From: Mobula birostris
Taxonomy: Eukaryota
DNA length: 64,000 nucleotides
Direction of reading: 5' to 3'
NCBI RefSeq assembly: GCF_030028105.1
Contig: NC_092388.1
Location: forward strand, 10,874,508 to 10,938,507
The notes under the pieces were generated by a model. That model was not told the origin of the DNA and searched no databases. It was given only the letters and a program-made list of their open reading frames with translations. A program made the translations under genes and the position numbers. Positions 8,411 through 17,933 of this stretch are shown piece after piece (position 1 is the stretch's first letter; every line of letters begins with the position of its first letter).

Positions 8411-8652
8411 ATAACCCTTCCGCTAACTGGCTGCATGCAAGGTCCACCAGAAAAAAACGCTGTCCTTACACTAAACATCAGACGCTGGAGCTGGAAAAGG
8501 AATTCTTGTTTAATATGTACCTCACCAGAGACCGCAGATACGAAGTGGCCAGAGTCCTCAATCTCACCGAACGGCAAGTTAAAATCTGGTTTCAGAATAG
8601 AAGAATGAAGATGAAAAAGATTAACAAGGAACGACCTAAAGATGACCGGTGA
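8411..8652 (+). CDS. hoxa9: HoxA9 coding exon 2 (homeobox); spliced protein 260 aa
   Basis: Acceptor TTTCAG|; [80 protein letters not shown]. Confidence 0.97.
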
Positions 8653-11543: not shown

Positions 11544-11560
11544 GCCAGAAGATGGCAGTA
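11544..11560 (+). promoter_or_regulatory. CTCF site between HoxA9 and HoxA7 (CBS7|9-like)
   Basis: GCCAGAAGATGGCAGTA fits the CTCF core; TGCAG upstream motif at ~11524; syntenic with a known HoxA boundary site. Confidence 0.7.
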
Positions 11561-13957
11561 TTAATCCACAAAAGAGTTTAAAAAGAGTGCCGCCAAGCTG
11601 CCAAAATGTGCAAATACTGTTATACCCCGGGATTTATTTATACAGTAGGTTGTAAATAGGATGAAAACATCTACGACAAATGACACTTGTAAATTCGGAC
11701 TGTGGTCGATGGAGTATATTCATTTTGAATCCATCAACTCATTTGTGAACAGATTAATTCCACTTCACAGAGGGTCTGAAAACCATTTGTACTTTAGTGT
11801 TTTATTTTTAATGTACAATAAGGCGTTTTAAATTGGTTATTTTCCACTCTATTCCTCAGCCCTACTGTGCAGTTTGCAGTACTGGAGAGCAATTAAAAGT
11901 TACTTGAAAACGAATCATTAAATATCTGCACATAAAATCGTGCATATAAACTACGTGCACAATACGTCCGCTCATCCACGCAACTATAACACAAATTCAT
12001 GCATTCAGACATATACGCAAGCAGTTTCATGCATATGATTGCACGTTAATTATTTATGGTGACTTCCTTTTCAAGAAGAGCAGGAGGAATCTCGTTAAAT
12101 GCAACACAACGAAGGAAAATAAAATCCATATCACATATATTTTATAATCAGAATTCAGATGATTATATTTAAAAACACCAACCTGACACTAAAAATATAT
12201 AATACATAATTAGGCAGGATAAGTTCGCCNNNNNNNNNNNNNNNNNNNNNNNNNNNNNNNNNNNNNNNNNNNNNNNNNNNNNNNNNNNNNNNNNNNNNNN
12301 NNNNNNNNNNNNNNNNNNNNNNNNNNNNNNNNNNNNNNNNNNNNNNNNNNNNNNNNNNNNNNNNNNNNNNNNNNNNNNNNNNNNNNNNNNNNNNNNNNNT
12401 CGCGCGGCTGTGATCTGGTCTGAATGAGAACAAGAGATTACTGAAATAAGCGATAATTTTATTTTGTATGAAGTCAGAAAATTATAGATTGCAAAGATGA
12501 TAACTCAGTGCAACATAAGATAGTGCATTTTAAATGTAGATAAGTATTAAATAGGGACGTCGTGAAATACCCGGTAAATTCATTCAAATAAGTTTTAGAA
12601 TCTGCATGAAATCATTAATAATTTATTTAAATTTGATAATGGTAACCAAATAAAAAGGTTTAAGGGGATACACGTTTATTTTTACACATACGTTGTCACC
12701 TACATAATATTTTAACATTGGGTCAAACTGCGACATTTAAGCATATAATTTTTTAAAGGGCAGTCTCTATAGGAACTTCCCCACATTGGTCTTGGAATGA
12801 ATAAGGGGGCGGCCGGCGTTAAAGAAGGCCTATTTATTACCAGAATCGGAATATTTAAAGAAATTCACTCAAGTTTATTTTGAAAGTCAAAAACGCACAA
12901 CCGCTTTTTGGAAGCATATTCGCTTTTACCTTTTGGAACAAAGCCGTGGCTCTTTCACCACGCTGAAAAGTGGTGTACATGGATTCAAAAGTTCGTCGGA
13001 TAGCCACAGAATTACGAACACGTGAATGATAATTATTTCACGATATATTTTCAAAAATGACGCTCGTAAATTGTATATATTTAAACGTGTATCCGTACGC
13101 GTGTGTTTGCACATTCTTGCCACAATGCTATGCTAATTTAGCAAAACTAGGCTTCCATTTTTTTAATAAGCTGCAGCGAGGAATCTGGAAGTTTTACAGC
13201 TCCATAAGAGATTACAAACTACAGCAAATGAGTTGTAATGGAATTTGATATAAAGGTATTTCAAAATATGTTGACAGCCAAGATATATATTATTATTCAA
13301 TCGCATTTCAAATATATGCTTCGTGATCAAGTGCTCGTTGCTACTTTGTCTATTGAAGTGTAAAGTTCACAGCTGCAGTTTCAATATGATCTGTTGCTGT
13401 GCAACATAATCTTAATGTTCCATAAAGTATTTTTTTCATGTATTTGCAACCGGCTGCCAATAACATTTAAATGTCTATTTAAATGTCATAGAAAAAAATG
13501 CTCATCGTTGAACGGGATAGGATTTCCAAAAATGCAAAATTTTCCAGATGACATGAAATTTGCCAAAATTTCTACTAAATATTGCGTTGCTACCCATTAT
13601 TGTGAATACGTCCTTCCGTCTCGATGTCCGTCTCCCTCTCTGCTGGCCTGTCTGCTTTCTGTCTGTCTGTTTTCCTGTCTATCTATTTATGCAATTGAGA
13701 AATTGTTAGTAATTGAATATTTATCGATTTTCAATCGTGCAAGATCAAATATGCCAGAACTGCTGAAGATATAACAGCAGAATTGTTTAGAGACCAGCAA
13801 TAATTGCAAAGCTTTATAAATCATTTTTATTTCTAAAATTTTGGCAATATTTGGAATTACGGCCACAATGTTTTGATATAATCGCATTAACGTGTATCTC
13901 GCTTTCTTTGCTTCTGCACGTCCTTCAATTCGATCTGTTACAACAATGCTGCGTATA

Positions 13958-14965
13958 ATGTACCCATGGATTCCTGGTAATAAAAAGAAAATAAGAATTT
14001 GGCATTGTTGATAAATAAACAGCATCAGTGCTTGATAGAGAAGGTTACAATTTAGTTAGATAACAGAATATAAGCATACTGACGATGTTGGACGGAATAT
14101 TATTATTTCTTCTATATTTAACAACAAATGCAACTAGGTCCACGCGTTCGGAATGATCATTGGACAACCGTACGAAGAAACTAGCAATCCTGGTAAATAG
14201 AGAAATATTGTGCCAAAGAAAATTGGAACAAAATAGTTTTGCCATTTTTCTGCTTCATGCTATTTGAAAATGATTTTTATGGAACTTTGAGGAACGTCGG
14301 TGTTCTTGGCGTGTATTTGACTTCAGTTAATAGCACAATTTTTATTATTATTGAAGTAATTTTGCATAGATGAAATGCTGATTTTATTCCGTTCAATTAC
14401 CTTACTTTTTAATTCAATTGCCCCTCTTCTATTGACTAGTGTCTCTTCAAGTTTTCGTCGGAGATCAATTATTTCTAATCATAGAACAATCGGTAGCGGT
14501 AACCTATTTTCTGCGAGGAATGTTTAGACTTAGAAAATATGATTTTTACACGTTATTTGATGGTTCTTCTCTCTGCTATATATATGCGTTCTGATTAAGT
14601 TAATTAAATTTACTTTAAAAATTATTTTTATATATTCTTCCGGCATCCTGTCAGTGTGTTAACAATCTTTGGCAGCCCGATTTCGGATTTATTTTAAGTT
14701 ATTTGTACTATAGGAAAAGTTTAGAACATAAAACCATCTCTCAAGCGGTTCCTGCGGTATTTACATTAGCACGTCGTTTCGTTTTAGGGATGTACAGGAA
14801 ATATGGAGATTACCAGCAGTTTTATAGCCTGGAGGTATATAAACTAAAGATTATTTTTTTAACGATCGAGAGACGAATGCAATCCAGCAACCTCCCGATA
14901 TAGCATCTTCGCGGATGCAAAGCCTAGAACTAGCCGGAGAGAACCAGAATTCAAAAGAAAATAAC
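13958..14965 (+). pseudogene. hoxa8: Decayed Hox paralogy-group-8 gene (psi-HoxA8)
   Basis: MYPWIP hexapeptide remnant with phase-1 donor G|GTAATA (13977); acceptor TTTCGTTTTAG| (14787); degenerate homeobox 14788-14965 in register with PG8, ending KENN; lies between HoxA9 and HoxA7. Confidence 0.7.
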
Positions 14966-16189
14966 ATTTAATAACATGAAAGCAAGTGCTTCTTAAAGGA
15001 TTTCAGACTCAAATGCAGAAACATATTTTATTGCAATAAGCCTTTACTTTTAACGTACCAGGTGCGTCGTTGTTAGACTGTGTGCCTGCTGTATGTACAG
15101 TGGCCTGGGGTTCCTTGCCTACGTATAACATCGAACAAATATAACAGTTAATCTTGCGCATTGAGGCAAAAGTTCGGCTAGGAAGCAACCAAAGCCAAAG
15201 TACAGCGACTGTCACAATTGCAAGGAAACTCGCTTCGGAGACACCTTCCATGATCTAATGAGAGAATTAGGAGACAGAGAGAATGAAAAAAAAGTTGTAA
15301 AACAGAAGGAGGAAATGATGCCGGGTTAAAGCCCCTGCGGGGATCTAGTCAGATTACCTAGCAACTCCAAGAGGTTTCCACAGAATATCTATGGCAGAGG
15401 AAATGCGGTGGTTTACAAAATGAAATTATGCATTTTGCTACATCAGTATGCAAACGTGATTGAATACATAAAAAGATCGAGAGTTCATAGCAGGAGCTGA
15501 TATCACAGGGACGCCCCGCCCAATTTCCTCGTAGCGTTACTGCGGGTTCTACCTCCTTTTTGCATTACTATTACCCATCAAAATCACACAGATTATCCCG
15601 TAATCTAGAGATTAGGTAGATGAACCTGATCATTAATTCCATAGGGCTCTGGTTACCACAGGCCTCCAACCCCTCCCCCATTCCCATATCCCTCTAATTT
15701 CATAGAGGAACTCATAATGCCGAATAACAGCAAACTCTTGCACAGACAGCGTGTGTGGAACAATGGAAGAGCGCCTGTCTTTTAATTGAAACCGTGTAAT
15801 GTCTACTTTTAACAAGGAAATTGTAGGAGATGTTTCGTAATTTTGATGTAATCGGTTTTCTTCTGTGTGTGAATTTTAGCTATTCCAGCAAGTAAAAGCA
15901 ATGTGTCCCCTTTTTTTTGTATCAAAGAAAACCTTTCATGACATTTCCAAATTCATCGCGCATCTCATTTTCAAAAGCGTTGGAGACATACCTGCGCTCA
16001 GAAAAATCTTCACATACGTGTGAGGGGGATTGGCTTGTCAAGAACTTGTTAGAAGATACTTACTTTTGGAAAGTTCCACAACCTATCTATATTAATAATG
16101 CAATCTTTTATATGATTCTTGCATAATTTATTTTGAAAATAGTCGAATAACATGATTTTTACCACCTGTGATGCGGAATGCTATTGGGC

Positions 16190-16346
16190 GACGGGATCAC
16201 ATGGTCGGGTCACGTGAATAGAAATAAGTCGGGCCGAAGGAAAATGGGTGTTTGGTGTAAATCGGGGGTGTAATGCTGCCATATATCACGCTATCTCGTA
16301 AAACCGACACTGAGGAGTCTCGGCCAACAAATCACCAGACAAAATT
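16190..16346 (+). promoter_or_regulatory. HoxA7 proximal promoter / conserved leader
   Basis: E-boxes CACATG and GTCACGTG, AAAATGG, TGGTGTAAATC, CATATATCA, TCGTAAAACCGACAC, typical of Hox7 promoters. Confidence 0.7.
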
Positions 16347-16740
16347 ATGAGTTCGTCGTATTATGTGAATGCTCTTTTTCCCAAATATACGGCGGGGACA
16401 TCCGTTTTCCAGAACACAAGTGGCTTTACTGAAGCAACTTCTTGTGCCTTTGCCGCGAACTCTCAGAGATCGAGCTATGGAGCGAGCGCGAGCGCCTTCC
16501 CAACCCCGATGGCCGGGTTGTACAATGTTAACAGTGCCATCTATCACGGCCCTTCCATGTACAACACGGGTTATAACCTAAATTCAGATTCCTACAACCT
16601 GCGCTGCTCTGCCTTAGACCAGAACATTCCAGTACTTTGCAGCGATCTGAGCAAACAGGGTTGCGAAAAATTGGACCAGACAAGCGTGCACCCTCAAGCA
16701 GAGAGCAATTTCCGGATTTACCCCTGGATGAGGAATGCAG
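16347..16740 (+). CDS. hoxa7: HoxA7 coding exon 1
   Basis: MSSSYYVNALFPKY start, FRIYPWMR hexapeptide, phase-1 donor CAG|GTATGG. Confidence 0.96.
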
Positions 16741-16888
16741 GTATGGGACATGAATGTAACTCGGCTATGGGAGACGTGCAAGCGGCCAGTTAAGATGAGA
16801 GCCAGTACATCCTGAAAGTAGTTAAAGAGTTTTAATGATAGCTGCGGAACAGTTCCTCAAACGCATGTGGCATTGTATGCAGATAGCA

Positions 16889-16936
16889 ATCATAAAACTT
16901 TTATTGCACAATTAATCAGTACAATCCTCGTAAAAG
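16889..16936 (+). promoter_or_regulatory. Intronic HB-1-like Hox/Cdx binding cluster
   Basis: ATCATAAAACTTTTATTGCACAATTAATC...TCGTAAAA at the 5' part of the HoxA7 intron. Confidence 0.6.
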
Positions 16937-17633
16937 CACTCGACATCCGCTCATTTAAGGTTAACAGCGAGGCACATATTGCTTATTTACTCACTTTAGT
17001 CAACATCAAATAAGCTTTTTAAAAACTGATACTCGGGAGGCAATATAGTCTTGAGCGTATGGAATGATATATTCCATGTCTAATGTAAGTTTACAGTTAA
17101 AACACAGTCGAAAGACTGAAAAAATTATACGTATTTTACCCCAAGAAAGATCCCTTGACCTATGTAAAGATTCAACCCTATAGATGTGAGTTCATCTTTA
17201 AAACGTACCATTAGGTACTGTAATGCAAGTGTAAATCTGCCCGGATTTGTGTGATTCTATTACTGGTCAACATACTTGAAGAACCTTTATTGAAACTGTA
17301 AGACATAAGTTACCTGTATTTTCTGATTAAATTGATATCCATAATCTTGAGTGAAATGTGTAGATCCTTAATGTTATTTCACTCTACTTGATAACAATTC
17401 TTAAAGACTACAGAGGCCTCCATTAAAGCTTATTCTCCTTGAATACACAGCCAGAAGAAAGAAACGCTTCGATCAAAATTGTTCATTTGCATCCTAAAGC
17501 TATTTAGAAATTAAATTTAGTCCATAGACAATTTAATGAAAGAGACAATTAGTCCACAGACAATTTAATAAGCAGACGTGGGGAAAGTTAGAGCGTCCAG
17601 TCGTGAATTAGACAGATTATCTATGTTTACTAG

Positions 17634-17933
<300 letters not shown>

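Follow-up and report, generated by a model that had tools for sequence, protein, structure and literature searches.

Possible remains of HoxA8 and a candidate antisense RNA between HoxA9 and HoxA7 in the HoxA cluster of Mobula birostris

What is left of HoxA8? Jawed vertebrates are described as being without the gene, in the available text of PMC3394115 for mouse and human, and the part of PMC3509897 at hand gives 11 HoxA genes for shark, coelacanth and bichir. The question is raised here by a stretch of 64,000 nucleotides of Mobula birostris DNA (the window), which is filled by the HoxA cluster: mir-196 (1218-1290, the sole Rfam match over the window), then A9, A7, A6, A5, A4 and A3, all on the + strand. 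The B, C and D clusters of the same 4.0-Gb genome encode intact B8, C8 and D8, and no intact fourth PG8 homeobox was seen among the 30 best genome matches translated. HoxC (G000:C38, 53.11-53.32 Mb) has several intact homeoboxes, C10, C9, C8, C6 and others, wider-spread than in the other clusters. An earlier note on this DNA had placed a fossil HoxA8 homeobox in the gap between two genes:

8446..8625, + strand: HoxA9 homeobox, the 5' neighbor (sequence match)
16347..17888, + strand: HoxA7 from the ATG through the homeobox end, the 3' neighbor

As to the place the earlier note was right, and a motif at 13958-13978 that it had overlooked favors A8 ancestry of the region. We regard it as an evenly balanced matter that the region 13.55-15.0 kb represents the remains of HoxA8, decayed almost to noise, with the hexapeptide end kept within an antisense RNA.

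The gap carries elements that recur in the other Hox clusters of this genome:

10843..10918, + strand: non-coding element paralogous to one between HoxB9 and HoxB8, the 5' anchor (blastn 78% over 76 nt, E 7e-11)
11545..11557, + strand: CTCF-like site (one mismatch to the CTCF consensus)
16238..16354, + strand: conserved element before the HoxA7 ATG, the 3' anchor (blastn E 8e-12 versus D; within a long B7 match)

Their order is that of HoxB, i.e. element, CTCF-like site, gene slot and pre-Hox7 element, and the slot is 4.7 kb long. The 3' anchor is common to HoxB7 and the D8-D5 gap, and we take it to be the 'four-cluster sequence'. The CTCF-like site is collinear with sites before HoxB8 and HoxC8 and is likely the A7/A9 boundary site; a CTCF motif between A7 and A9 is reported to be conserved in skate in the available part of PMC9605692. 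In HoxD, about 1.2 kb after the D8 homeobox (G000:C7, near 166,998,800), the pre-Hox7 element is kept though HoxD7 is missing, and it resembles HoxA7 up to the position of the start codon, which reads ACG. The 5' anchor holds Cdx-type A/T words, and it is a candidate enhancer, either a leftover of HoxA8 or one that serves HoxA7.

The clearest sign of a Hox gene inside the slot is a short motif:

13958..13978, + strand: hexapeptide-like exon-1 end, M-Y-P-W-I-P and a phase-1 GT, 830 bases upstream of the claimed homeobox

Like HoxB8, HoxC8 and HoxD8, it reads M-x-P-W followed by Pro and a phase-1 GT, and a splice from this GT to the acceptor at 14787 would keep the frame. In 245 kb strand-bases there are 10 instances of T[AT][CT]CC.TGGAT, nine of them in real hexapeptides and one at 13961, and the motif is the only non-gene site with at least 15.4 bits in 645 kb of Hox DNA. 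The motif was found by eye, and its P value in the interval is 0.013-0.015 with an all-Hox matrix and 0.03-0.06 with a PG8-only matrix; a longer profile of the PG8 exon end does not rank it among its top 4 peaks. It has the Tyr of the PG4-7 type, and reaching the PG8 donor takes two 3-base deletions. The sense 'donor' is not independent evidence, because CCT-GGT-AA can be read simply as an antisense acceptor. The motif supports the A8 ancestry of the region and likely marks the remains of the gene.

Upstream of the motif a coding exon can be traced weakly:

13553..13976, + strand: would-be exon 1 (weak), with an in-frame ATG, 3 stops and a microsatellite at about 13610-13690

The ATG lies 408 nt before the motif, compared with 405-411 in the PG8 genes, and this spacing alone has a P value of 0.35. 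The 3 stops in the frame compare with an expectation of 7.7 (P 0.04). The alignment of this stretch to PG8 exon 1 is not above shuffles (P 0.12-0.42), and the search for an MSSYFVN-type start gave P 0.80-0.95.

The homeobox itself was claimed further downstream:

14766..14787, + strand: two possible acceptors, AG 14786-14787 (the one in the earlier note) and AG 14768-14769, read from the sequence
14788..14965, + strand: claimed homeobox remnant, the would-be HoxA8 exon 2, within intron 2 of the antisense RNA

At the level of letters all that had been stated about it is correct, i.e. the acceptor AG 14786-14787 and the translation, 12 identities with PG8 at homeodomain positions 16-58 (12/43), the TAG stops at positions 48 (14925) and 50, each a single base off TGG or CAG, YxxYQ one codon early, and KENN at 14954-14965 after a frame shift. 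Beyond the 12 identities, R5 and Q12 likewise match, a third TAG occurs at position 40, and the acceptor AG 14768-14769 reproduces the B8/D8 spacing to Y11-Q12. In the helix-3 core WFQNRR, W48 and Q50 are one change away each and R53 is kept; F49, N51 and R52 need 2-3 changes each, so the core as a whole is more than a few changes away.

These matches do not rise above background. Outside the homeoboxes the window has 117,574 diagonals; 3 of these attain 12/43 and 115 attain the local BLOSUM score of 26. The 12/43 is rare per diagonal but not per interval, because 7.6% of 1500 dinucleotide shuffles of the A9-A7 interval attain it and 9 other non-gene diagonals in 645,000 strand-bases of the Hox clusters of the same genome have at least 12/43. 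Pfam, where PF00046 was sought, gave 0 families at E<=10 on the claimed homeobox in two frames (HoxA7 control 9e-24), and nhmmer with a PG8 exon-2 model found no match on it. Searching for five PG8 parts by nhmmer (promoter, promoter plus exon 1, exon 1, exon 2 and 3' flank) gave nothing above -5 bits. The claimed homeobox is outside the top 8 in every one of 12 DNA weight-matrix scans, and blastn of the A9-A7 interval against the B, C and D loci left the candidate without a match. Using gapped codon-aware profiles we obtained P values of 0.34-0.92 for the interval and 0.27-0.67 for the expected 1.1-kb zone; with cheap gaps the best PG8 alignment in this zone is exactly 14789-14966, yet its P value is 0.27. 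Across Pfam, nhmmer and the DNA profiles (P 0.27-0.92) the score is thus no better than that of shuffles, a comparison the earlier note had itself proposed as the test of its claim.

The assignment to paralogue group 8 did not hold up either. The combination of L21, S35 and KENN had been taken to single out PG8; HoxA10 matches at 13/43, HoxB9 at 12/43 and PG8 at 12/43. At the DNA level the claimed homeobox is closer to A7 (55/129) than to B8 (51/129), and in the register of the note the identities with HoxB8 are spread over the three codon positions as 14, 18 and 19 of 43. Codon positions 1 and 2 have 32/86 matches (chance 23), and these are bunched into 12 identical residues. In neutral-decay simulations with 31-33/86 matches at these positions, 12 identities were reached in 1 of 8770 cases, with a mean of 5.1. 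Such bunching of residue matches has the look of a best-of-many match, and the residue-by-residue alignment of the earlier note is probably not the true one. Because the profile and paralogue-group tests failed, we do not file the candidate as an established PG8 pseudogene.

In its arrangement the candidate is similar to HoxB8, HoxC8 and HoxD8 of the same genome: it has their cluster slot, and its would-be hexapeptide and homeobox and the elements on either side come in the same order and at like distances. It differs from them by having no significant alignment, by its stops and frameshift, by Tyr for Phe and by the lack of a miR-196 site. It lies on the coding strand between Hox9 and Hox7 with paralogous spacing, as a PG8 pseudogene should. 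The distance from the hexapeptide to the pre-Hox7 element is -2290, between those of D8 (-1646) and B8 (-2804); the distance from W48 to this element is -1326, between D8 (-1246) and B8 (-1691); and the hexapeptide and W48 are 964 apart (paralogues 400-1575). Motif and homeobox are found collinear in 2/1500 shuffles, with thresholds set after the fact, and this number overstates the case because the motif was found by eye, other motifs would have been acceptable and the thresholds equal the observed values. The joint DNA-profile score at the candidate place has a P value of 0.14; under a stricter joint setting the P value is 0.007, but the homeobox is then placed elsewhere, at 15273-15317.

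The close rival of the HoxA8 reading is that we are looking at chance patterns only, i.e. no recognizable HoxA8 but AT-rich intergenic DNA that gives rise to a Hox antisense RNA of the usual sort and may include a HoxA7 enhancer. We consider it a serious possibility, somewhat short of even. Every single homeobox test is at background, the residue matches cluster as they do under best-of-many selection, and a second alignment, with KDYFFN at 14846 read in the frame of KENN at a separation of 36 codons rather than 40, is by eye no worse than that of the earlier note and incompatible with it. The lost HoxD6 and HoxD7 of the same genome left no clear exon or homeobox signal after the HoxD pre-Hox7 element either (P 0.05-0.96). 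What argues against chance is the motif with its P value of 0.013, on the right strand and in the right order and spacing, inside the 4.7-kb slot that the CTCF-like site and the pre-Hox7 element enclose. The evidence for a HoxA8 fossil is circumstantial, and the fossil is probable but unproven.

Related sequences are informative about the homeobox and its surroundings. Runs of 10 organisms carry the 2.1-kb stretch wholly or partly, with word shares of 0.26-1.0 in nine of them. This presence is unremarkable because the non-coding HoxA DNA of chondrichthyans is highly conserved, according to the available text of PMC2746220. Our comparison covers four of the 24 listed runs (X10, X12, X16 and X18) and 40 of the 108 rows of substitutions. 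X10 and X12 come from two close relatives, about 3-6% apart.

One T of a run at 14854 is missing in both X10 and X12, hence the gapless register is limited to the lineage of the window (the polarity being inferred). R30 and the stop at position 40 are altered in both relatives, and in X12 R31 is changed to a stop and TTT is inserted inside KENN. With the letters of the relatives the identities in the claimed homeobox go down from 9 to 8 or 7 of 34. Among the changes listed, four are shared; two of them (14915 and 14918) approach PG8 and none departs from it, a number too small to weigh. The survival of the homeobox had been ascribed to slow decay or regulatory constraint; we saw no constraint on it: in X12, 137 of its bases carry 9 substitutions together with 2 indels, and the next 278 bases carry 4 substitutions (contrast p 0.012). 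Divergence is lower around the motif:

13664..14015, no strand assigned: conserved stretch (edges set by the contig)

X10 has 4 differences in the 351 bases of 13664-14015 versus 63 in the following 1003 (p 4e-5), and X12 has the same trend more weakly, with 22/781 versus 19/399 (p 0.09). The divergence pattern therefore places the constraint upstream, at the would-be exon 1, and not on the homeobox. None of the 40 of 108 substitutions listed for the relatives falls within the hexapeptide-like motif. X16 (72 million letters, another organism) covers just 13515-14158 with 0 differences, which is uninformative on divergence; this coverage could reflect a transcript, capture or low coverage.

The reading of the earlier note, a gapless PG8 homeobox fossil at positions 16-58 that survived through slow decay or regulatory constraint, is largely refuted by these data, and we think it highly improbable. 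Its rank among the top 3 of 117,574 diagonals, its position, which fits B8 and D8, and the two changes toward PG8 speak for it; the missing T at 14854 with the falling identities, the 2-3 changes needed at each of F49, N51 and R52, the single case in 8770 neutral simulations, the lack of constraint and the better match of A10 speak against it.

Near-perfect miR-196 sites follow B8 (-36.7 kcal/mol) and D8 (-33.0 kcal/mol), and seed-type sites follow A7 and A9. We found no miR-196 site downstream of the candidate, the best duplex having -18 kcal/mol versus -37 (B8) and -33 (D8). A miR-196-like 12-mer after KENN (about 14969-14980) was rejected, being without a seed, altered in X12 and not the best 3' duplex.

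If the constraint is at the motif, what is it for? A contig of X18 (322 nt, depth 16), from the same organism but another sample, joins 13863-13972 to 15058-15256. The joint at 13972/15058 skips 1085 and has the ends CT..AC, and the 13-nt loose end of the contig maps once in the window, to 15994-16006. The exons are as follows:

15992..16006, - strand: antisense RNA exon a (known from its final 13-15 nt), about 340 nt before the HoxA7 ATG, with a consensus GT donor
15059..15254, - strand: antisense RNA exon b, 196 nt (X18 contig; GT-AG)
13863..13973, - strand: antisense RNA exon c (5' part seen; X18 joint), with a pyrimidine tract

On the minus strand both introns begin with GT in a good donor and end with AG after a pyrimidine tract, and therefore the contig is taken as a spliced RNA that runs from the upstream side of HoxA7 toward HoxA9. 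The strand comes from the splice sites since contigs carry none, the RNA nature of X18 is a guess, none of the runs with the stretch being on record as RNA, and the antisense RNA is known from this one contig of one run. The donor of exon b is the same in X12 and X10, and its acceptor is the same in X10, in contigs whose differences are listed in full. By its anatomy, spliced with two GT-AG introns and on the opposite strand, it is a Hox antisense transcript. The acceptor AG of exon c is the CT of the Pro codon right after Y-P-W-I, so the motif provides the first bases of the exon, while the claimed homeobox sits in the second intron.

The spliced RNA has an open reading frame of 159 codons (ATG at 15251, stop at 13687) that is open across the junction, with A at -3 and G at +4 of the start, a hydrophobic N-terminus and no indels in either relative; 0/3000 shuffles have an ORF of equal length. 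Exon b shows 8 distinct changes in the relatives; 7 of them replace an amino acid, and third codon positions are untouched. A protein search with the antisense frame (proteins of 67-214 aa) gave 4 candidates, none significant, an Atlas search with the ORF gave no usable match, and a 22-nt pattern had 0 matches in metagenome contigs. That the RNA encodes a 159-residue protein, explaining the conservation instead of a Hox past, is in our view highly improbable too, despite the frame and its start, given the residue-altering changes, the lack of a homologue and a contig that ends at 13863, short of the stop codon. We read the antisense RNA as probably non-coding.

On the reading that these are the remains of HoxA8, the gene would have died early and its exon 2 would have drifted to background, the would-be homeobox being now inside an intron of the antisense RNA; because of this drift no single homeobox alignment is trustworthy. 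The end of exon 1 would have been kept through a second job, as exon and acceptor of the antisense RNA or as part of an overlapping enhancer, and the hexapeptide end likely survives because it is now the start of the third exon of the RNA. The RNA may be transcribed from a divergent promoter upstream of HoxA7. Either the RNA or an overlapping enhancer could cause the conservation around the motif, and would probably act in cis on HoxA7 and HoxA9. We speculate further that HoxA8 was recycled, its exon-1 end turned into a splice acceptor and exon of an A7-A9 antisense lncRNA that would be an ancient counterpart of HOTSCRAMBL, which we regard as a long shot.

As kinds, neither Hox pseudogenes nor Hox antisense RNAs are new. 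Early horn-shark HoxA work is said to have marked an A8 vestige. In the literature searched there is no report of a HoxA8 pseudogene or remnant, and none is mentioned in the available parts of PMC2746220, PMC1845163, PMC3707753, PMC5054437, PMC3509897, PMC1831499 and PMC9605692. In the elephant shark, Hox14 pseudogenes (A and B) are recognized in the accessible part of PMC3707753. Going by that text, they too stand for a lost Hox gene whose remnants have stayed at their site in the cluster of a cartilaginous fish; our candidate differs by being indistinguishable from background in profile searches and by concerning group 8. In the 32 kb upstream of HoxA13 we saw no homeobox-like peak of a HoxA14 remnant with a general Hox profile, which may miss a three-exon PG14 gene.

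In human, HOTSCRAMBL (ENST00000602610) is a 633-base antisense lncRNA between HOXA7 and HOXA9 that supports HOXA9 splicing, as given in the available text of 10.1101/2025.07.16.664824; the same text states that its similarity is low outside mammals and, according to its authors, that it has no orthologues. Our RNA is likewise a transcript of the opposite strand in the A7-A9 gap, and the likeness is one of position alone. The part of PMC8293171 at hand reports homologues of Hox antisense lncRNAs down to the elephant shark and notes conservation by position alone. Spliced antisense transcription inside the cluster is shared with HOXA-AS3 and HOXB-AS3, as described there, whereas none of the antisense lncRNAs tabulated in that part comes from the A7-A9 gap or has a link with a lost Hox gene.

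If a HoxA8 remnant can be traced, it would fix the place of the gene and could contribute to dating the loss. More promising as a lead is the antisense RNA, spliced and located in the A7-A9 gap of a cartilaginous fish: with it one can test whether the slot of human HOTSCRAMBL is of ancient origin and whether the exon of a dead Hox gene found a new use. If the recycling is true, HOTSCRAMBL, described as recent, would go back to the base of the jawed vertebrates and would have been born from a dead Hox gene.
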